This document shows positions 1,194-38,341 of a stretch of 64,000 nucleotides of DNA, piece by piece; positions within the stretch are counted from its first letter, which is position 1; the number at the start of each line of letters is the position of its first letter. Made by a program: the position numbers and the translations under genes. Origin of the DNA: Escherichia phage RB3; sequence record KM606994; one strand, written 5' to 3'. The notes below the pieces were generated by a model, which was not told where the DNA came from, ran no database searches, and saw nothing but the letters and a program-made list of their open reading frames with translations.

Positions 1194-2324
1194 TTATGGA
1201 TAGGTATAGATGATACCAGTTTCTAAAGCAGTTTTGTGAATGATGTATCCATTACGCGATTCTTGGACATCAACTTCTGGATAATCTTTCATCATCTTCT
1301 GAAGAGTGTAACGATGCAGGTAGTATTTACTATCTGGATCTTCAGTTTTCCAATCTTTACCTTCTTCAGTCATTTTTTGGATTTCATCCATAACCCACCA
1401 ACCGCACCAGATGTAAGCTGAAGTACGATGTGGAAGAGGATGAACATAAGGTAATTCACCTTCTGGTTCCGGAGCAACTTTATCAGTTACCTGAACTTGA
1501 CCTTCTGCCGTAATAGTTTTGCTATCATAATCAGCAGCAGTAACAGTTGCAGTAACTTCAATAGTTTGACTTCCAATAGATGAGGTATCAACGGTATATA
1601 CATTAGTTGACCCTTCTACAGGAGAAGAATCTTTCTTCCATGAATACGCAATTTGCGCTTCTTCTGGAGCATTAGTGACATTAGCGGTAAATGTAGCCGA
1701 AGCATCTTGCTGCACGTTAATAGAAGGAGGAGTCAATGTAACCTGTGGATTCATTGTCTTCTTATTAACCGTTAATGATACTTCATTCGAAGTAACTTCC
1801 TTTTCATTGTAATTTTCAGCAGTTACTTGGGCTACGCATTTAATTCTTTTTACTCCACTTGTAGTTGGAGTATAGCTAAATGTAGAGTTAGTTTCTCCAC
1901 CAACTTGTGAATCATCTACATACCACTGATACGTAGCAGACGCTCCAACGGGTTGAGAAGCTAAGGCAGCAGTAAATTGAACTGGGGTTCCAATTACTCC
2001 AGCTGAAGGACTATCAGGAGTTACTGCCAAGGTAGTTGTCTGTGTCTTATTTTGAACTGTGATAGTTGTACTAATTTCAGCTGTTTCAGCTTCAGAATCA
2101 GGAATAGTATTTGTTGCAACTACCTTAATAGTTTTTTGACCAGCAGGTCCTTTTAATACATAATCAAAAGTTGCTGCTGATCCTTCTTGGGGAGCATTAT
2201 CTACGCTCCAAGCATAGGTAATAGTTCCACCTCCAGTTTCACCACTGGGTGTAGCAGTAAACTGCTTGGTTTCATCAATAACCCCTGTTGGTGTTTTAGG
2301 AGTTATATCAACTGTAAAAGCCAT
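1194..2324 (-). CDS. hoc: Hoc, highly immunogenic outer capsid protein with tandem Ig-like domains
   Basis: 376 aa, equal to recalled T4 Hoc length; three S/T-rich repeated Ig-like modules plus C-terminal capsid-binding region; position between rnlB and inh. Confidence 0.85.
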   Translation of the reverse strand: MAFTVDITPKTPTGVIDETKQFTATPSGETGGGTITYAWSVDNAPQEGSAATFDYVLKGPAGQKTIKVVATNTIPDSEAETAEISTTITVQNKTQTTTLAVTPDSPSAGVIGTPVQFTAALASQPVGASATYQWYVDDSQVGGETNSTFSYTPTTSGVKRIKCVAQVTAENYNEKEVTSNEVSLTVNKKTMNPQVTLTPPSINVQQDASATFTANVTNAPEEAQIAYSWKKDSSPVEGSTNVYTVDTSSIGSQTIEVTATVTAADYDSKTITAEGQVQVTDKVAPEPEGELPYVHPLPHRTSAYIWCGWWVMDEIQKMTEEGKDWKTEDPDSKYYLHRYTLQKMMKDYPEVDVQESRNGYIIHKTALETGIIYTYP

Positions 2325-2333
2325 AAGTTATCC

Positions 2334-3014
2334 TTATTTTAATGTTACGAAAGAAGAATTGCGTGTTTCACGAATTAGAACTGATCCATCACGATTAATG
2401 TAGTAAATTAAGCTAAATAAAGTTTGGTGTGCCGACGCGTGTTCAAAACTAGTTGGGTGAGATTTCCAATCCGGAGTTTCAGCAATCCACTGGTAAATCC
2501 ACCAAGGAACCGTGCAGAATCCTGGATTTTTTCCAATCAGCTGAAGATTCGGACTAAAGTTTTCCGGAAGAGTAAATACAGACGGCTTTTCAGATTCAAC
2601 AATCTCAGCTACAGCCTGTTCGAATTTTTCTTCAACAAAAGGAGTATCTTCAATCAAAACTGAGGTATTTTCAGGAATTTTATCCGTTTCTACTACTTCA
2701 ATTTTAATGTCAGATTTAACCGGAGAATCAATCAGAAGTGCTGCTTCTGGATTGACTTCTTCATCGTCATATTTTAATCCCTCTGCGGCATCAGCAGCAT
2801 CAATTAGGTCTTTAATAGATAACCCATCAGTCTCAGGCATAGGTTCACTAGCGAGCTTCTGGAGGGCTTCTTCAATATCAACAACGATATTATCAAAAGA
2901 TTTATTCTTTTTGACCTTTATACCAAACTGTTCAGCATATTCAGCTAATTTAGCTTTAGCTTCTTTATTATCATCAAGAGCCTTCAGCTCTGCAATATAA
3001 TCTTTATCTATCAT
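2334..3014 (-). CDS. inh: Inh, inhibitor of prohead protease gp21
   Basis: 226 aa acidic protein immediately upstream of hoc, as in T4. Confidence 0.75.
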   Translation of the reverse strand: MIDKDYIAELKALDDNKEAKAKLAEYAEQFGIKVKKNKSFDNIVVDIEEALQKLASEPMPETDGLSIKDLIDAADAAEGLKYDDEEVNPEAALLIDSPVKSDIKIEVVETDKIPENTSVLIEDTPFVEEKFEQAVAEIVESEKPSVFTLPENFSPNLQLIGKNPGFCTVPWWIYQWIAETPDWKSHPTSFEHASAHQTLFSLIYYINRDGSVLIRETRNSSFVTLK

Positions 3015-3027
3015 AATATTTCCTCAG

Positions 3028-3035
3028 TATAAATA
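3028..3035 (+). promoter_or_regulatory. late promoter TATAAATA upstream of segE
   Basis: Exact TATAAATA ~29 nt upstream of segE ATG. Confidence 0.5.
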
Positions 3036-3063
3036 TAGATATATTTATTACTCGGAAAATAGT

Positions 3064-3681
3064 ATGTACCACTTTGTATATGAAACAACAAATCTAATAA
3101 ATGGTAAAAAGTATATAGGAAAACACTCTACTGATGACTTGAATGATGGTTACCTTGGTTCCGGTAAGGCAATTCAGCAGGCTATAAAGAAATATGGTGA
3201 AAACAATTTCTCTAGAACAATACTAAAAGAGTTTAAAACTTCCGAAGAAGCGTACATGTATGAAGAAGAAATTATAACTCCTGAACTAATAAAAAGCAAA
3301 AATTATTATAATATGAAACCTGGTGGAATTGGTGGAATTGTTATGACTACAGAGGTTATAGCAAAGATGAAAGAATCTTCCGCTAAAAGATTTGAAAACT
3401 CACCAGGCACGGTATTAGGTAAAACTTGTTACACTAATGGAACTAAAAATATTTTTATTAAACCTGGAGAACTTGTTCCAGAAGGATTTGTAAAAGGGAT
3501 GGTTCATCCTAATAGAAAGTCCAGAAAAGGATGTAAAGTCAAACCGACTACCACAGGAACTTTTTGGGTCAATAATGGCGCAATAAATAAATTAATACAA
3601 CCAGACGGTATTATTCCCGACGGATTTATTAAAGGTCGTCTCATGAAAAGAGATTCTAAAGGCAAATTTAGTAAGGCATAA
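3064..3681 (+). CDS. segE: SegE GIY-YIG homing endonuclease
   Basis: 205 aa; N-terminal GIY-YIG-type motif (FVYETTN...KYIGK); free-standing between inh and uvsW as in T4. Confidence 0.8.
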   Translation: MYHFVYETTNLINGKKYIGKHSTDDLNDGYLGSGKAIQQAIKKYGENNFSRTILKEFKTSEEAYMYEEEIITPELIKSKNYYNMKPGGIGGIVMTTEVIAKMKESSAKRFENSPGTVLGKTCYTNGTKNIFIKPGELVPEGFVKGMVHPNRKSRKGCKVKPTTTGTFWVNNGAINKLIQPDGIIPDGFIKGRLMKRDSKGKFSKA

Positions 3682-3683
3682 TT

Positions 3684-5192
3684 ATGGATATTAAAGTACA
3701 TTTTCACGACTTCAGTCATGTACGCATCGATTGTGAAGAGAGCACGTTCCACGAATTAAGAGATTTCTTTTCGTTTGAGGCCGATGGATATAGATTTAAC
3801 CCTCGCTTCAGATATGGCAACTGGGATGGACGAATCCGTCTGTTAGATTATAATCGTCTTCTTCCATTCGGCTTAGTCGGGCAAATTAAAAAGTTCTGTG
3901 ATAACTTTGGCTATAAAGCTTGGATTGACCCGCAAATTAACGAAAAAGAAGAATTATCAAGAAAAGATTTTGATGAATGGCTTTCTAAATTAGAAATCTA
4001 TTCAGGAAATAAAAGAATTGAACCGCACTGGTATCAAAAAGATGCAGTGTTCGAAGGATTAGTTAATCGTCGTAGAATTCTTAATCTTCCAACATCTGCA
4101 GGTAAATCTTTAATTCAAGCTTTGCTTGCGCGATATTATTTGGAAAATTATGAAGGTAAAATTCTTATCATTGTTCCAACAACTGCTTTAACAACTCAGA
4201 TGGCTGATGACTTCGTTGACTATCGTTTATTCAGTCATGCAATGATAAAGAAAATCGGCGGCGGAGCATCAAAAGATGATAAATATAAAAATGATGCACC
4301 AGTCGTTGTTGGTACATGGCAAACTGTAGTAAAACAACCAAAAGAATGGTTCTCACAATTTGGAATGATGATGAATGATGAATGTCATCTTGCTACAGGA
4401 AAAAGTATTTCATCTATCATATCAGGTTTAAATAACTGCATGTTCAAATTTGGTCTATCGGGTTCATTACGTGATGGCAAAGCCAATATCATGCAGTATG
4501 TTGGAATGTTTGGTGAAATATTTAAACCAGTAACGACTTCTAAATTAATGGAAGATGGACAAGTAACTGAGCTAAAAATTAATAGTATTTTTCTTCGCTA
4601 TCCCGATGAGTTCACTACTAAATTAAAGGGAAAAACTTACCAAGAAGAAATAAAAATTATTACTGGGCTTAGTAAAAGAAATAAATGGATCGCTAAATTA
4701 GCTATTAAGCTTGCACAAAAAGATGAAAACGCTTTTGTCATGTTTAAACATGTATCGCATGGTAAAGCTATTTTCGATTTAATTAAAAATGAATACGATA
4801 AAGTTTATTACGTATCAGGGGAAGTTGATACCGAAACCCGCAACGTAATGAAAACCTTAGCTGAAAATGGTAAAGGAATAATTATAGTAGCTAGTTATGG
4901 TGTATTTTCTACTGGTATTTCAGTTAAAAATCTGCATCACGTTGTTTTAGCGCACGGTGTTAAATCTAAAATTATTGTATTGCAAACAATCGGTCGTGTA
5001 TTACGTAAGCATGGTTCTAAAACAATCGCAACAGTCTGGGACCTCATAGATGATTGTGGTGTTAAGCCAAAATCTGCTAATACTAAAAAGAAATATGTTC
5101 ATTTGAACTATCTTTTAAAACACGGCATTGATCGTATTCAGCGCTACGCAGATGAAAAATTTAATTACGTAATGAAAACAGTTAATTTATAA
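3684..5192 (+). CDS. uvsW: UvsW DNA helicase
   Basis: 502 aa; helicase motif I PTSAGKS and motif II DECH. Confidence 0.9.
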   Translation: MDIKVHFHDFSHVRIDCEESTFHELRDFFSFEADGYRFNPRFRYGNWDGRIRLLDYNRLLPFGLVGQIKKFCDNFGYKAWIDPQINEKEELSRKDFDEWLSKLEIYSGNKRIEPHWYQKDAVFEGLVNRRRILNLPTSAGKSLIQALLARYYLENYEGKILIIVPTTALTTQMADDFVDYRLFSHAMIKKIGGGASKDDKYKNDAPVVVGTWQTVVKQPKEWFSQFGMMMNDECHLATGKSISSIISGLNNCMFKFGLSGSLRDGKANIMQYVGMFGEIFKPVTTSKLMEDGQVTELKINSIFLRYPDEFTTKLKGKTYQEEIKIITGLSKRNKWIAKLAIKLAQKDENAFVMFKHVSHGKAIFDLIKNEYDKVYYVSGEVDTETRNVMKTLAENGKGIIIVASYGVFSTGISVKNLHHVVLAHGVKSKIIVLQTIGRVLRKHGSKTIATVWDLIDDCGVKPKSANTKKKYVHLNYLLKHGIDRIQRYADEKFNYVMKTVNL

Positions 5193-29576: not shown

Positions 29577-31164
<1,588 letters not shown>

Positions 31165-31187
31165 AATAAAATGGGCCTTGCGGCCCA
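31165..31187 (-). terminator. hairpin between nrdB and denA
   Basis: GGGCC-GCAA-GGCCC followed by ATTTTATT on minus strand. Confidence 0.45.
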
Positions 31188-31191
31188 CTCC

Positions 31192-31694
31192 TTAAAAGTA
31201 TTTTTTAAAACTCATCATAACTTTATCATCAACATCATTATCAATCTGTGCAACAAGGTAAGATGACAGTTCTACTTCTTGTGGCGCGGATTGAACATTA
31301 TCAGAATTAAGATATTCACGAATCCAAGGATATGGATGTTTAACCGGAGCATCGGTAATTGGGCATGGAAGACCACACTGTTTCATACGAGATACAGTTA
31401 AGTAATCAATAAAGCTCCACATGCTATTTGTATTTAATCCAGGAACATCGCCATCTTTAAATAAATGAACTGCCCAATCTTTTTCTTGGCGGTTAACTTC
31501 CATGAAAATATCAACTGCTTCTTGTTCACACTCTTGAGCAATTTTAACCCATTCATCACCATCAGTACCGGATTGAAGTTGACGAATAATATATTGAGTG
31601 CCTTTAAGGTGAAGCTGTTCATCGCGTGCAATGAACTTCATAATCTTGGCATTACCTTCCATGATTTCCATGTTCTTATGGAAGTTAAAGGTAC
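31192..31694 (-). CDS. nrdB: ribonucleotide reductase small subunit NrdB, exon 2
   Basis: In-frame continuation ...TFNFHKNMEIMEGNAKI... of NrdB; 3' splice site placed after the intron-terminal G at 31695. Confidence 0.75.
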
Positions 31695-32785
31695 CGTTAT
31701 GTTCGATTGAGCTCGCTAATTCTCAACCCGTTCTCTTATGAACTGCTACATATTACTATGCAGACCAGACTATATCACAATCCCAGAGGGATTCTCCCCA
31801 TTTCGAGTCGCTTGACCCTACGTCCGAAGACTAGTCGTTGAACCTTGCTTTGCAATTGTCGCCGTGCCATCGTTTATATGTTGATGGTGATAAATCTTTC
31901 TTATCACAATATGGACAATTCAATTGAATTCTATTTGGATTTAATTTACATCTGTCATTATGTTTTAGATAAAATCCAGGACCTTTACCAATGTGACCGC
32001 AGAAATCACATGTGATTTCTTTTTGTGCAGGATGGGTCCCGTTCTTAACCATTTCTAATGTTTTTGCTGATGTTCTTTTCTTATGGTCTTCTGACAAGAA
32101 ATGATGTGAACCGTCATTTACCCGTTTTGATTGAGTTTCTGACTGCATTTTACCACCGCAAAATACATGAGTACCTTCTTTTATAGCTGCAATATTGCGT
32201 TCTTTAACTTTTGCAATATGCTCAGCTTGTTGAAAATTATGTATACCTAATGCAACTCTATTTAAATTAGATTTACGCTGTATTTCACCGTCTAAAAGAT
32301 GAAATGTACCATTTTCTATCTTAGATTTAATAGAGGCAATATTTTTAGCTCGTACTTCAGGGATATTAAAAATCTGGATTTCTCTAGATTTTGCGGCTTT
32401 AGAAGCTAATTCAGAAATTTCTTCAGGAGAATATTTCATTCTAAGCTTTATAGCATGACAAGCCTGGTAATCTTTTTGAGCTAAATGTATATCATAATGT
32501 TCCTGTATAGAAAGGCACATCAAATTATCTAAATCATTATTTTCACGGTTACCGTCTTTATGATGGATTTCGTCTGTTCTTCCATCAGAATCTTTAGGTA
32601 TAGGTCCGTTAGCATCTATCCAAATTTTTCTATAGTTCAATTGTGCATCCTCTTAAAAGTATAATCATATTTATATTATACTAATTAAAGGTGCAAGCAA
32701 AACCTTGGCTGCTAGTTTTCCTATAAAGGACTTTCCAGCAATTAAAGGAGTTTTCGATAAACGTTACCGTTTAAAGGCGCATTTT
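31695..32785 (-). mobile_element. group I self-splicing intron in nrdB (1091 nt) carrying I-TevIII
   Basis: Exon 1 ends in U, intron ends in G; joining exons creates codon UGU (Cys) giving ...FYVSFACTFNFHKNMEIMEGNAKI..., alignable with E. coli NrdB ...FYVSFACSFAF..ELMEGNAKI. Confidence 0.7.
31831..32640 (-). CDS. I-TevIII: HNH homing endonuclease I-TevIII, full length, inside the nrdB intron
   Basis: 269 aa; HNH motif HHKDGNRENNDLDNL...QEHYDIH and C-terminal Cys4 zinc finger; TTG start with GAGGA SD. Confidence 0.8.
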   Translation of the reverse strand: MNYRKIWIDANGPIPKDSDGRTDEIHHKDGNRENNDLDNLMCLSIQEHYDIHLAQKDYQACHAIKLRMKYSPEEISELASKAAKSREIQIFNIPEVRAKNIASIKSKIENGTFHLLDGEIQRKSNLNRVALGIHNFQQAEHIAKVKERNIAAIKEGTHVFCGGKMQSETQSKRVNDGSHHFLSEDHKKRTSAKTLEMVKNGTHPAQKEITCDFCGHIGKGPGFYLKHNDRCKLNPNRIQLNCPYCDKKDLSPSTYKRWHGDNCKARFND

Positions 32786-33461
32786 ACGCAAAAGATACAT
32801 AAAAACGAATAGCTTCTAAGGCATTAATAACGTGCAAACAGAGGTAAAGAGATTTCATTAAAGCACGTTTAGCTTCGGCTTCTTGCTTAATAGCTCGGTT
32901 TAAACGAAAGTCGGCATCAGGAGATTCTTTAGCTAGTTCTACAAATTCTTTAGCATTTTCCCATTCACGGGTTTTAATCAGAACATCATCATAATAGCGA
33001 CCGATAGATTCAGCGCGTTTCATAATAGCTTCATCTAATACAATCTCATCAAACACCTTTGACGGATCAGTATAAAGATTTCGCATGATATGTGTATATG
33101 AACGACTGTGAATAGTTTCACTAAAAGTCCATGTAGCAACCCATGTATCAAGACTTGGGTCTGAAATTAATGACATAAGTACAGCAGATGGCGCACGACC
33201 CTGAATGCTATCCAAAAGTGATTGATACTTCAGATTATTAGTAAAAATATTTTGCTGATACTGAGGAAGCTTATTAAACTGTGCAGCATCCATCATTAAG
33301 TTTACTTCTTCCGGGCGCCAGAAGAATGACAATTGCTTTTCGGTCAAATCTTCAAAAACTTTATGGCGTTGAATATCATAACGCGCAATACCAAGACCTG
33401 AACCAAAAAACATGGGTTCTTTTAAAACATCAACTGGATTTGTATTAAAAACTGTAGACAT
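32786..33461 (-). CDS. nrdB: ribonucleotide reductase small subunit NrdB, exon 1
   Basis: Starts at ATG (Met13 of track ORF) overlapping mobE stop as TAATG; ends ...AIRFYVSFA plus U of a split Cys codon. Confidence 0.75.
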
Positions 33462-34192
33462 TAATTTTTCCTCTTTAAAATTCTGCCGCGTTTCCAACCT
33501 GGCGGTATAATATCATCTTTACCTATAAGCGTGCATTCACTTCCATTATTAATCCATTTCTTACCGCGGATTCCTTTATAATCTCTTGGTTGTATTTTAT
33601 CAAACTTTGCATCAAGTTGATATGACCATCTAAATCCATAGGCATATTGAAATTTACCCTCAGCACAATATTTGATATTTGACCCGTTTCCATTAACTGA
33701 CCTGGACGCTGCCGCAATAGAGTGAAAGGTTTCTATGAAATCCCCATCTAATGAGAATTTATGTATTTCGATAGATGGGCATGCATACCTATTCACGTTT
33801 GATACATGTTGTTTAGTTTCGTTTTTATGATGCTTGCCTAACATTCCTCTAGGATGAGGATTATTTTTCCAATATTTCTTAAAGAAATCAGAATTAGCTT
33901 TAGCAAATAATTTTCTGTGCAAGCTATACAATCTGTTATTAATTCTATTACCAGCTTTATCTGTTGCCATTAACGTTAACGCAGAGGCAAGCCCAAAATG
34001 GCCTTCATTTATCTTACATAGTAATAGATGCGCTATAAAATGTTCTCTAGCTGTTAATTCAACTAAATTTTCTTTATCATCAGAACCTCCCATGCATTTA
34101 GGGACTATATGATGTGTCTCTTTATATTCAGATAAAGGTTCCCGAGCCTGAGCTCGGGAAATTAGGTCATTATAGATTTTTTGATAATTCAT
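33461..34192 (-). CDS. mobE: free-standing HNH homing endonuclease (MobE-like)
   Basis: 243 aa; HNH motif HHIVPKCMGGSDDKENLVELTAREHFIAH; between nrdA and nrdB. Confidence 0.7.
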   Translation of the reverse strand: MNYQKIYNDLISRAQAREPLSEYKETHHIVPKCMGGSDDKENLVELTAREHFIAHLLLCKINEGHFGLASALTLMATDKAGNRINNRLYSLHRKLFAKANSDFFKKYWKNNPHPRGMLGKHHKNETKQHVSNVNRYACPSIEIHKFSLDGDFIETFHSIAAASRSVNGNGSNIKYCAEGKFQYAYGFRWSYQLDAKFDKIQPRDYKGIRGKKWINNGSECTLIGKDDIIPPGWKRGRILKRKN

Positions 34193-36456
34193 TACAATTT
34201 ACACGCTGCACAATCGTCGGCTTTAGGAGTTTCTATTTCATAATCATCAGTACCAGAACCATCACGGGTATTATGATAATAGAAATTTTTAATGCCATAA
34301 TACCATCCGTATAGCATGTCATCAATCATTATTGACATTGGAACCTTTCCTTTTGGAAAAATCTGCGGGTCATAATATGTATTCGCTGAAGCTGATTGAC
34401 ATACCCATTTCAGCATAATAGCTACTTGCGTAAGATAAGGTTTATTACCTTTCTTAGCTAATTTCCATGTATAATCATAGAGGTCTATGTTATGCTCAAT
34501 ATTGGGCACGACCTGATTAAAGGAGCCCTCTTTTGATTCTTTAACAGAGACTGGTCCACGTGGAGGCTCGATACCGTTTGTACTGTTAGAAACTTGGGAA
34601 GATGACTCACATGGCATAAGTGCTGATAATGTGCTATTACGGATGCCAAAGAGCTTAAGGTCTTCCCGCAGCGCCGACCAGTCACAAACGTATTTTGGAG
34701 CTGCGATTTGGTCAATCTTTTTATTGTACCAGTCGATAGGTAATTCGCCTCGAGACCAACGAGTGTCTGAATAATATTCACAAGGTCCTTTTTCTTTGGC
34801 GAGCTTAATGGATGCTTTAATGAGTCCATACTGTAATCTCTCAAATAGTTCATGTGTTAAATCGTTAGCATCTTCATAAGAAGCAAAGTTACTTGCCAGC
34901 CAAGCTGCATAGTTGGTAACACCTACACCGAGGTTACGACGCTTTTTAGCTTTTTCTGCTTCAGGAACTGGATATCCTTGGTAATCCAAAAGATTATCAA
35001 GAGCACGAACTTGAACTTCTGCCAATTCATTAATTTTATCTTGGTCTTGCCAGTCAAAATTATCTAGTACGAATGCAGATAACGTGCACAAGCCAATTTC
35101 AGCATCAGGACTATTCACATCATTTGTTGGAATAGCAATTTCACAGCACAAGTTACTCTGACGAATAGGTGCCTTTTCACGAATAAACGGAGTATAGTTA
35201 TTCGTATTATCAATGAACTGTACATAAATCCTTGCTGTTCCTGAACGTTCAGTCATGAGCAATTCAAATAGTTCACGGGCTTTAATACGCTTTTTACGAA
35301 TATTAGGGTCTTTTTCTGCTGCTTCGTATAATTCACGGAAACGGTCTTGGTCTTTAAAATAAGAATAATAAAGCTCTCCACCCATTTCATGCGGACTGAA
35401 CAAAGTAATGTAATCGTTCTTTCCGAATCGTTCCATCATCAAATCATTCAGTTGAACACCATAATCCATATGACGAATGCGGTTTTCTTCTACGCCTTTG
35501 TTATTTTTCAAAACGAGAAGATTTTCAACTTCCAAATGCCAAATAGGATAATAAGCAGTAGCAGCGCCGCCACGAATTCCACCCTGTGAACATGATTTAA
35601 CTGCAGTCTGAAAATGTTTCCAAAAAGGAATAACACCAGTATGGCGTACTTCACCCATGCCAATCTTAGAACCTTCGGCACGAATCATACCAACGTTAAT
35701 ACCAATTCCAGCGCGTTTAGAGATATATTCTACAATCGAAGCGGAAGCCTTATTGATAGACTTCAATGAATCACCTGCCTCAATAACAACGCATGAACTA
35801 AACTGCCGAGTTGGAGTACGGCAACCAGCCATAATAGGAGTTGGTAATGAAATCTGTCGAGTAGATACTGCTTCATAAAAACGAATAACGTGTTTTAGTC
35901 TATCAACAGGTTCATCTTGATGCAATGCCATTCCAATAGTCATAAATGCAAACTGCGGAGTTTCATAAATTTGACCAGTGGTTTTATCTTTAACTAGATA
36001 TTTTTCTTTTAATTGCATCGCTCCGGAATAAGTAAATTCCATATCCCGCTCGTGCTTAATTTTTGATTCTAAAAATGTAATTTCTTCTGCAGAATATTTT
36101 GACAACAATTCAGGGTCGTATTTACCTTCATTTACACAGTAAGAAATATGGTCAATAAATGAACGTGGTTCATATTGTCCGTAAACATGCTTACGAAGAG
36201 CAAACATTAAACAGCGCGCAGCCACGTATTGATAATCAGGCTCTTCAACTGAAATAGAATTCGCAGCAGCCTTAATTACAATGGTTTGAATGTCATCAGT
36301 GGTCATTCCATCACGGAGATATGATTTAATATTTTCATATAATTCATAAGGATCTACAGATGTTCCTTCAGCTGCCCAAGATAAAACTTTAATAATTTTT
36401 TGCGGGTCAAAGCTCTGAGAAACACCACTACTTTTGATAACATTAATTAATTGCAT
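34192..36456 (-). CDS. nrdA: ribonucleotide reductase large subunit NrdA
   Basis: 754 aa, equal to T4 NrdA; class Ia RNR signatures. Confidence 0.9.
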   Translation of the reverse strand: MQLINVIKSSGVSQSFDPQKIIKVLSWAAEGTSVDPYELYENIKSYLRDGMTTDDIQTIVIKAAANSISVEEPDYQYVAARCLMFALRKHVYGQYEPRSFIDHISYCVNEGKYDPELLSKYSAEEITFLESKIKHERDMEFTYSGAMQLKEKYLVKDKTTGQIYETPQFAFMTIGMALHQDEPVDRLKHVIRFYEAVSTRQISLPTPIMAGCRTPTRQFSSCVVIEAGDSLKSINKASASIVEYISKRAGIGINVGMIRAEGSKIGMGEVRHTGVIPFWKHFQTAVKSCSQGGIRGGAATAYYPIWHLEVENLLVLKNNKGVEENRIRHMDYGVQLNDLMMERFGKNDYITLFSPHEMGGELYYSYFKDQDRFRELYEAAEKDPNIRKKRIKARELFELLMTERSGTARIYVQFIDNTNNYTPFIREKAPIRQSNLCCEIAIPTNDVNSPDAEIGLCTLSAFVLDNFDWQDQDKINELAEVQVRALDNLLDYQGYPVPEAEKAKKRRNLGVGVTNYAAWLASNFASYEDANDLTHELFERLQYGLIKASIKLAKEKGPCEYYSDTRWSRGELPIDWYNKKIDQIAAPKYVCDWSALREDLKLFGIRNSTLSALMPCESSSQVSNSTNGIEPPRGPVSVKESKEGSFNQVVPNIEHNIDLYDYTWKLAKKGNKPYLTQVAIMLKWVCQSASANTYYDPQIFPKGKVPMSIMIDDMLYGWYYGIKNFYYHNTRDGSGTDDYEIETPKADDCAACKL

Positions 36457-37325: not shown

Positions 37326-38341
37326 CATTATGTTCAGATAAGGTCGTTAATCTTACCCCGGAATTATATCCAGCTGCATGTCACCATGCAGATCAGACTA
37401 TATCTCCAACTTGTTAAAGCAAGTTGTCTATCGTTTCGAGTCACTTGACCCTACTCCCCAAAGGGATAGTCGTTAGGCATTTATGTAGAACCAATTCCAT
37501 TTATCAGATTTTACACGATAAGTAACTAATCCAGACGAAATTTTAAAATGTCTAGCTGCATCTGCTGCACAATCAAAAATAACCCCATCACATGAAATCT
37601 TTTTAATATTACTAGGCTTTTTACCTTTCATCTTTTCTGATATTTTAGATTTAGTTATGTCTGAATGCTTATGATTAAAGAATGAATTATTTTCACCTGA
37701 ACGATTTCTGCATTTACTACAAGTATAAGCAGAAGTTTGTATGCGAACACCGCACTTACAAAACTTATGGGTTTCTGGATTCCAACGCCCGTTTTTACTT
37801 CCGGGTTTACTGTAAAGAGCTTTCCGACCATCAGGTCCAAGTTTAAGCATCTTAGCTTTAACAGTTTCAGAACGTTTCTTAATAATTTCTTCTTTTAATG
37901 GATGCGTAGAACATGTATCACCAAACGTTGCATCAGCAATATTGTATCCATTAATTTTAGAATTAAGCTCTTTAATCCAAAAATTTTCTCGTTCAATAAT
38001 CAAATCTTTCTCATATGGAATTTCTTCCAAAATAGAACATTCAAACACATTACCATGTTTGTTAAAAGACCTCTGAAGTTTTATAGAAGAATGGCATCCT
38101 TTTTCTAAATCTTTAAAATGCCTCTTCCATCTCTTTTCAAAATCTTTAGCACTTCCTACATATACTTTATTGTTTAAAGTATTTTTAATCTGATAAATTC
38201 CGCTTTTCATAAATACCTCTTTAAATATAGAAGTATTTATTAAAGGGCAGTCCTACAATTTAGCACGGGATTGTCTACTAGAGAGGTTCCCCGTTTAGAT
38301 AGATTACAAGTATAAGTCACCTTATACTCAGGCCTCAATTA
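37326..38341 (-). mobile_element. group I self-splicing intron in td (1016 nt) carrying I-TevI
   Basis: 5' end UAAUUGAGGCCUGAGUAUAAGGUGACUUAUACUUG recalled from the T4 td intron; intron ends ...UAAUG before exon 2; length 1016 nt as in T4. Confidence 0.85.
37473..38210 (-). CDS. I-TevI: GIY-YIG homing endonuclease I-TevI, inside the td intron
   Basis: 245 aa; MKSGIYQIKN...KVYVGSAKDFEKRWKRH. Confidence 0.9.
   Translation of the reverse strand: MKSGIYQIKNTLNNKVYVGSAKDFEKRWKRHFKDLEKGCHSSIKLQRSFNKHGNVFECSILEEIPYEKDLIIERENFWIKELNSKINGYNIADATFGDTCSTHPLKEEIIKKRSETVKAKMLKLGPDGRKALYSKPGSKNGRWNPETHKFCKCGVRIQTSAYTCSKCRNRSGENNSFFNHKHSDITKSKISEKMKGKKPSNIKKISCDGVIFDCAADAARHFKISSGLVTYRVKSDKWNWFYINA

Follow-up and report, generated by a model that had tools for sequence, protein, structure and literature searches.

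The mobE gene of RB3-type phages has a catalytic head in common with T4 mobE and a different, presumably DNA-binding, C-terminal part

Results

An annotated gene in the nrdA-nrdB gap

The ORF that separates nrdA from nrdB in Escherichia phage RB3 was known and named beforehand, being annotated as mobE, and in RB3-type Tequatrovirus phages it is in all likelihood a free-standing, selfish HNH homing endonuclease gene which replaces the 51-nt spacer between nrdA and nrdB. Judged by alignment, mobE is a name for at least two alleles, which have the catalytic head and the left flank in common but differ in their presumed DNA-binding halves, these being unrelated to each other. The stretch analyzed here (64,000 nucleotides of sequence record KM606994; referred to as the window) carries the RB3-type allele.

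ORF listing and reading of the bases located the gene as an ATG-started ORF of 243 codons plus stop on the minus strand (33461..34192), between nrdA (34192..36456, minus strand, an ORF of 754 aa) and nrdB. At each junction, the pentanucleotide TAATG was read. Upstream (34190..34194, minus strand; UAAUGA as RNA), the last A of the nrdA stop codon TAA is the first base of the mobE ATG; downstream (33463..33459, minus strand), the last A of the mobE TAA is the first base of the nrdB ATG. An earlier note on this DNA had described a 243-aa HNH protein lying between nrdA and nrdB with single-nucleotide overlaps at both ends, and both statements agree with the ORF, its HNH residues and I-HmuI-like fold (see below), and the two junctions. 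The true start of nrdB is the ATG at 33461..33459 (MSTVFNTNP...), as opposed to the upstream TTG given in the automatic ORF list. The Shine-Dalgarno sequence of nrdB, AGAGGA (33469..33474), sits within the final codons of mobE, and this 3′ junction, comprising AGAGGA and TAATG (33459..33474, minus strand; read from the sequence), is identical in all 10 RB3-type loci compared, as is the overall geometry, with a distance of 730 nt between the nrdA and nrdB anchors.

Over its 732 nt, the gene is 100% identical to the annotated mobE of RB3 (AY262130.2), RB5, RB6, RB7, RB9, and RB10, the deposited product name of the identical sequence being MobE, putative homing endonuclease. The window and the RB3 record AY262130.2 differ at two of 2860 nt. 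It is virtually certain that the ORF is the RB3 mobE allele, and RB3 MobE (ABI48926.1) and its counterparts in RB5, RB6, RB7, RB9, and RB10 (KM606995-KM606999) represent the same gene with the same flanks, without any difference. To this extent, an annotated gene was re-discovered in a classic model system, which changes little; Sandegren and colleagues are said to have been the first to report mobE in RB3, in 2005.

The earlier note had also raised the possibility that alignment might reveal a degenerate remnant. This candidate is ruled out: the 243-codon ORF is intact in all 10 RB3-type alleles, the catalytic residues are invariant (see below), and the gene is under purifying selection, with a mean pN/pS among the 10 alleles of 0.10 over the whole ORF (0.14 in aa 1-58 and 0.09 in aa 59-243). 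By analogy, RB3-type MobE is likely to be an active homing nuclease.

Distribution and the flank of the cassette

The nrdA-nrdB region was matched at ≥90% identity by ∼510 records. The full RB3-type gene was present in ∼55 phage records, and the C-terminus of the T4/LZ7 type, at ≥80% identity, in ∼60. In the Tequatrovirus loci that were fetched, the gap existed in three states, containing either a 51-nt spacer (11 mobE-less loci), RB3-type mobE, or T4-type mobE. Such polymorphism for presence and absence among close relatives is expected of a mobile element. Homologues of the RB3-type gene also lie directly upstream of nrdB in Citrobacter phage CF1, Salmonella phage CGG4-1, and Erwinia phage Cronus. 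As a separate observation, the nrdA/nrdB gap of LH2 and of one IMG/VR contig holds an ORF of 522 aa.

The last ∼28 nt of nrdA carry substitutions (encoding the tail ADDCAACKL vs AEDCSSCKL) which, in Tequatrovirus, are perfectly linked to the presence of mobE. We considered whether the CSSC to CAAC change proves that MobE targets the nrdA tail and rejected this, because ADDCAACKL also occurs natively in mobE-less phages whose NrdB has a lower identity to that of the window and which probably belong to other genera. The CAAC tail would thus be explained most simply as co-converted donor flank that was brought in with the cassette.

Two types of MobE

Aligned with T4 over the nrdA-nrdB interval, the window is near-identical along the nrdA end and into mobE for ∼165 nt (97%), and homology is then lost until the nrdB start codon. 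These first 165 nt (34028..34192, minus strand; aa 1-55, with the HH...N...H core) are the sole part that is common to T4-type mobE by DNA alignment; they are 97-98% identical to those of T4, ECO4, and a48, and 87% to those of LZ7. At the protein level, aa 1-58 of window MobE are 93% identical to the T4 type, and BLASTP similarity to T4 MobE ends at ∼aa 105. No match to the LZ7 C-terminus was found in RB3-type loci, nor any match to the RB3-type C-terminus in T4-type loci. Simple orthology with T4 MobE is therefore ruled out for the C-terminal three quarters, where the DNA cannot be aligned past nt ∼165 and BLASTP is silent past aa ∼105. The T4-type protein itself comprises 213 aa in LZ7 and a48 and 232 aa in ECO4; it is intact in these phages and also in T6. 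In the T4 reference AF158101.6, the T4-type gene is split into mobE and nrdB.1, whereas it is a single ORF in other T4 records and in ECO4, so the split appears to stem from a frameshift that only this record has.

The two types also differ in their modules and in the way they end. Those of T4 and LZ7 contain NUMOD3 repeats and a CPHC...WHYDKC zinc finger, those of the RB3 type a NUMOD1 module and a WINNG...IPPGWKRGR motif; T4-type mobE overlaps nrdB by 4 nt (ATGA), RB3-type mobE by 1 nt (TAATG). Common to both are the location in the nrdA-nrdB gap, the UAAUGA stop/start overlap at the nrdA end, an intragenic hairpin, a distance of ∼700 nt to the intron site in nrdB, and the substitutions in the nrdA tail. 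The arrangement had been likened to that of T4 mobE before, and the likeness holds for position, the N-terminal ∼58 aa, the nrdA overlap, the hairpin, and the distance to the intron, but not for the C-terminal three quarters, which are unrelated.

Architecture of RB3-type MobE

The Pfam HNH model matched aa 21-44 with 19.3 bits, slightly below its gathering cut-off of 21.4 bits. In an alignment of 34 sequences of the family, E25, H27, H28, P31, C33, G36, N42, E50, H51, H55, and W189 were invariant, the catalytic residues being so down to 33% identity; the HNH residues among them are H27, H28, N42, H51, and H55. The full-length family (P0001-P0020), which was 47-96% identical in the database search, contains NUMOD1 in most of its members. 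In window MobE, this module spans aa 147-177 (33662..33754, minus strand; 25.9 bits in Pfam, above cut-off) and is absent from MobE of the T4/LZ7 type. It is followed by the C-terminal motif GKKWINNG...IIPPGWKRGRILKR at aa 210-241 (33470..33565, minus strand), which emerged from tblastn against the window and from the family alignment. The latter motif appears twice in SegE, a GIY-YIG endonuclease encoded at 3064..3681 of the window (tblastn), and BLASTP of MobE against SegE gave 50% identity over 32 aa (E = 7e-8). Despite this likeness, which is confined to modules, SegE has a GIY-YIG instead of an HNH catalytic domain and a different insertion site. The T4 protein nearest to the C-terminal 181 aa of the RB3 type is MobB (28.8%, aa 6-129 of the fragment), rather than T4 MobE; again, the insertion site of MobB is a different one, and the similarity exists at the level of modules only. 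One homologue from a Salmonella phage carries the name "MobB-like".

The AF2 model of MobE (pLDDT 88.8) has strands at aa 25-28 and 43-46 and a helix at aa 48-61, in the β-β-α order of the HNH (His-Me finger) fold. Its best structural match was I-HmuI (PDB 1U3E), the intron-encoded HNH nicking homing endonuclease of Bacillus phage SPO1, with a sequence identity of 13% and a relative domain orientation that is unreliable in the MobE model (pTM 0.49); unlike I-HmuI, MobE is encoded by a free-standing gene. A sequence search of the PDB returned only weak matches to the HNH motif (group II intron maturase, McrA, and Cas8-HNH). Together, the domain matches show MobE to be modular, with a predicted N-terminal HNH domain, a NUMOD3-like stretch, NUMOD1, and a C-terminal WxNNG...GWxxGR motif, a layout resembling an extended I-HmuI.

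Signals for expression

In T4, mobE lacks a dedicated promoter and is expressed from transcripts shared with nrdA, and its expression is attenuated by an intrinsic terminator hairpin located 27 nt past the AUG (PMC2790892). The UAAUGA overlap with nrdA exists in T4 as well, where translational coupling was proposed (PMC2988022). In the window, a terminator scan revealed a hairpin ∼30 nt into mobE (34139..34160, minus strand), with a 9-bp stem and a 4-nt loop and followed by CCUUUAUCU; the predicted RNA fold amounts to -17.9 kcal/mol (z = -3.5). The hairpin is kept in 14 of 14 mobE alleles, of which that of LZ7 has substitutions in it, and is the same as the weak intrinsic terminator sequence of T4 mobE. 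Inspection by eye of the sequence upstream of the mobE ATG revealed no Shine-Dalgarno element, which, together with the overlap with nrdA, suggests translational coupling. A scan for a mobE promoter yielded only a weak consensus match that spans the nrdA/mobE junction and is within chance expectation. When a middle (MotA-dependent) promoter for nrdB was sought inside mobE with a simple scan for MotA boxes with a -10 element, TGCTTAA-12-TACAAT was found in the 3′ part of the T4 and LZ7 genes and none here at ≤2 mismatches; the scan also missed mobE-less T2 and is thus unreliable.

The neighboring intron

nrdB of the window is interrupted by a group I intron of ∼1.09 kb after ∼nt 675 of the gene. 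Alignment to the intronless nrdB of T2 placed exon 1 at 32787..33461 (approximate boundary) and exon 2 at 31192..31694, both on the minus strand; the intron (31695..32786, minus strand) has approximate boundaries, since they were drawn from alignment to intronless nrdB, and agrees with the joined nrdB CDS in the RB5 annotation. An Rfam search for a group I intron gave no match at gathering threshold. Within the intron lies the gene for full-length I-TevIII, an HNH endonuclease of 269 aa (31831..32640, minus strand), as judged from the ORF, Pfam HNH_3 (E = 1.9e-11), and the RB5 annotation. From the end of mobE, it is ∼675 nt to the intron site and 821 nt to the I-TevIII start codon (32640), which accords with the ∼700 bp between the two endonuclease genes that had been noted before.

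I-TevIII of T4 is a defective enzyme that relies on MobE, whereas that of RB3 is active (PMC2790892, the latter in its introduction). Only a 97-aa, defective version is present in T4. There, one element rescues its defunct neighbor, whereas here I-TevIII is intact. mobE and I-TevIII thus represent two potentially autonomous HNH elements inside one co-conversion tract because I-TevIII is full length in the window, as it is in RB3, where it is active. Among the eight annotated RB3-type phages that were fetched, seven have an intronless nrdB of 1179 nt, and one phage contains the intron with its 269-aa ORF without mobE; mobE and the intron therefore assort independently.

Where RB3-type MobE may cut

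T4 MobE nicks the non-coding strand of nrdB at nt 122-126 (PMC2790892), and the self-immunity of T4 was explained by substitutions at nrdB nt 114-131 (Wilson & Edgell, 2009; PMC2790892). T4 mobE shows super-Mendelian inheritance and supports trans-homing of the defective I-TevIII (PMC2790892), with the authors' reservation that action via another nuclease could not be excluded (discussion of PMC2790892). The equivalent of the mapped nick site in the window (33336..33340, minus strand) is T2-like (GAA AAG). nrdB and nrdA were compared in a small sample of 10 RB3-type, 4 T4-type, and 11 mobE-less genomes, without phylogenetic correction. In all four T4-type phages, nrdB is densely substituted at nt 38-135, and RB3-type genomes are free of these substitutions. 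Around the nick site, nt 117 and nt 129 are the only positions at which the window departs from T2. Four RB3-type loci (L089, L090, L092, and L094) are identical to sensitive T2 over nt 85-179, and the changes nt 117 A>G and/or nt 129 G>A occur in the window and five other RB3-type loci, but also in mobE-less KIT03 (L099).

A position-by-position association scan that covered nt 1-650 of nrdB and the 790 nt at the 3′ end of nrdA, comparing the 10 RB3-type with the 11 mobE-less genomes, revealed perfect linkage to the RB3-type allele at nrdA positions -28, -18, -15, -13, -4, and -2 and at nrdB nt 4-6. Within nrdB, only codon 2 (AGC>TCT) was linked to RB3-type mobE, and the state of the nrdA tail in RB3-type alleles was common to T4-type alleles. 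Between the same 10 and 11 genomes, no SNP linked to the RB3 type was found in nrdB nt 7-650 or in nrdA -29 to -790.

On balance, these comparisons lean toward a target of RB3-type MobE that differs from the T4 MobE site, because the region past aa ∼55 is unrelated and because nrdB nt 114-131 have been kept in the T2-like state. This argument assumes that a homing endonuclease spares its own genome. SegH and Hef, as Sandegren and colleagues reportedly described in 2005, do cut their own DNA, so self-sensitivity of MobE is not impossible. As all perfectly linked differences fall within 28 nt of the insertion, the best guess for the target, if a tentative one, would be the junction formed by the nrdA end, the spacer, and the nrdB start, which the insertion destroys. 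Plain linkage to the insertion explains the junction-linked SNPs equally well. The earlier note had stated that both HNH genes target the same locus; for RB3-type MobE, this is something we infer for the allele itself and do not transfer from T4, because its C-terminal three quarters are unrelated to those of T4/LZ7 MobE.

Discussion

If RB3-type MobE behaves by analogy to T4 MobE, its gene would lack an own promoter and be transcribed from the nrdA promoters; it would be attenuated by the internal terminator and translated at a low level through coupling to nrdA termination. nrdB itself starts at the second TAATG overlap, and its Shine-Dalgarno sequence lies within the end of mobE. During co-infection with a relative devoid of mobE, MobE would, again as in T4, nick or cut the naive nrdA/nrdB region, and recombinational repair from mobE-containing genomes would copy mobE and flanking DNA into the recipient. 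The copied flank could include the nearby nrdB intron, which itself contains an intact endonuclease gene.

Other explanations have to be weighed against homing by an enzyme with a target of its own. RB3-type MobE could be a functional equivalent of T4 MobE, placing the same nick at nrdB nt 122-126 in a genome that escapes harm because expression is low, because self-nicking is tolerated, or because of the silent changes at nt 117 and 129. Wilson & Edgell pooled RB3 with other mobE phages in their nick-site analysis (PMC2790892), and the common insertion site, the near-identical catalytic N-terminus, and the identical terminator fit such equivalence, as do the nt 117/129 changes, which adjoin the nick site in the window and five RB3-type loci. 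We nevertheless regard it as unlikely: the C-terminal region, which sets the site in modular HNH and GIY-YIG homing enzymes, is unrelated, the same two variants are present in a phage without mobE (KIT03), and four RB3-type loci equal T2 throughout nt 85-179.

It is improbable, on the other hand, that the gene is kept for functions in cis, i.e., for the nrdB ribosome-binding site, the coupling junctions, and an attenuator that balances NrdA and NrdB, such that deletion is harmful and the protein perhaps inactive or only regulatory. Constraint would then be expected at the two ends only, where the terminator (5′) and the nrdB Shine-Dalgarno sequence and start (3′) reside, yet pN/pS is 0.09-0.14 across the whole ORF, and the catalytic residues are invariant even among homologues with 33% identity. 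Despite the fact that selection against deletion has also been argued for T4 (discussion of PMC2790892), and that enzymatic activity of purified protein has been shown for no MobE, deletion of aa 33-62 from the T4 protein abolished nicking and lowered inheritance (PMC2790892), and 23 of these 30 residues are identical here. The pattern of presence and absence and the foreign nrdA flank indicate, in addition, repeated lateral spread. Finally, MobE might mainly back the neighboring intron by trans-homing, as T4 MobE does for defunct I-TevIII, instead of serving its own spread. Apart from the T4 precedent (PMC2790892), this notion could draw on the intron site being ∼675 nt from mobE and, thus, inside the ∼2-kb range of co-conversion in T4 (PMC2790892); with I-TevIII of full length (269 aa), with nrdB lacking the intron in seven of eight RB3-type phages, and with intron and 269-aa ORF occurring in a phage without mobE, indicating independent assortment, it is very improbable.

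Returning to homing by two differently targeted enzymes, one possible, if speculative, reading of the nrdA/nrdB gap is that it accommodates two specificity alleles with swapped DNA-binding modules, the RB3 type directed at the junction and the T4 type at nrdB nt ∼114-156. RB3-type genomes retain the T2-like T4 site, so nicking of these genomes by T4-type MobE would be expected, with conversion of the 3′ module from the RB3 type to the T4 type. If this reading is true, the exchange would be resolved within the 165 nt that both alleles share at the start of mobE, and the gap would be a place of direct allelic competition between homing endonucleases and of natural retargeting by domain swap.

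To the ∼55 records with the RB3-type gene, findings made on T4 MobE, among them its nick site and the proposed immunity substitutions, should not be carried over. Should the targets of the two types indeed differ at this one locus, RB3-type and T4-type mobE would constitute a natural pair for studying how modular HNH endonucleases are retargeted and how selfish elements mutually replace one another.

Results and Discussion

Four nuclease genes are found within ~8 kb of the window: I-TevI, mobE, I-TevIII and denA. I-TevI (37473..38210, minus strand), which resides in the td intron, combines a GIY-YIG domain with the I-TevI zinc finger and DNA-binding domains, and denA (30754..31188, minus strand), the gene for the GIY-YIG enzyme endonuclease II, is located directly downstream of nrdB. 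Elsewhere in the window, the GIY-YIG protein SegE (3064..3681, plus strand; Pfam SegE_GIY-YIG) contains two copies (WVNNG...IIPDGFIKGRLMKR) of the C-terminal motif of RB3-type MobE (50% identity, 32 aa). Pfam gave no family for this motif, neither in SegE nor in RB3-type MobE. Its occurrence in both proteins means that GIY-YIG and HNH endonucleases of one genome have a presumptive DNA-binding module in common.

In mobE-less phages, the 51-nt spacer between nrdA and nrdB (for example, 4115..4165 of the T2H comparison locus) harbors the inverted repeat GACTCAyGGACGAGTC, which is wholly deleted in both mobE alleles. Around the site nicked by T4 MobE (nrdB nt 96-135), substitutions resembling those of the T4 type occur in some mobE-less phages, namely RB32 (locus L004), BCPShso_001 (L102) and LH2 (L106). 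Such substitutions could represent resistant alleles lacking the endonuclease, or they could be traces of past co-conversion or of mobE loss.

In Escherichia phage LH2, the gap between nrdA and nrdB has a third kind of occupant, an ORF of 522 aa (2314..3882 of its locus); the sole Pfam match of this ORF, REase_MTES_1575, is weak (22 bits) and below threshold. The ORF may correspond to "hef", a gene that has been reported from phage U5. Locus L011, the gap of which spans 1609 nt, likewise has this third occupant. In Yersinia phage fPS-90 (Tequatrovirus), a homing endonuclease gene (1524..2234 of locus L105) interrupts nrdA, leaving it in two ORFs, an arrangement resembling that of Aeromonas phage Aeh1, where mobE lies inside nrdA.

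In the T4 reference record AF158101.6 (2809..3509 of locus L003), mobE is in two pieces, a 141-aa mobE and an 83-aa nrdB.1. However, the same sequence in ECO4 forms a single 232-aa ORF, and the tblastn match is in one piece in the T4 records KJ477686, HM137666 and OZ209023. The split therefore looks like a frameshift peculiar to AF158101.6, which would reflect an error in sequencing or a difference between strains.

I-TevIII (31831..32640, minus strand; HNH_3, E = 1.9e-11) lies inside the nrdB intron (~31695..32786). The T4 protein is defective, comprising only 97 aa, whereas that encoded in the window comprises 269 aa; like the window copy, I-TevIII of RB3 is full length. Because full-length I-TevIII is situated beside mobE, the locus carries two intact HNH elements, and the T4 scenario, trans-homing of a defunct neighbor, is therefore not applicable as such.
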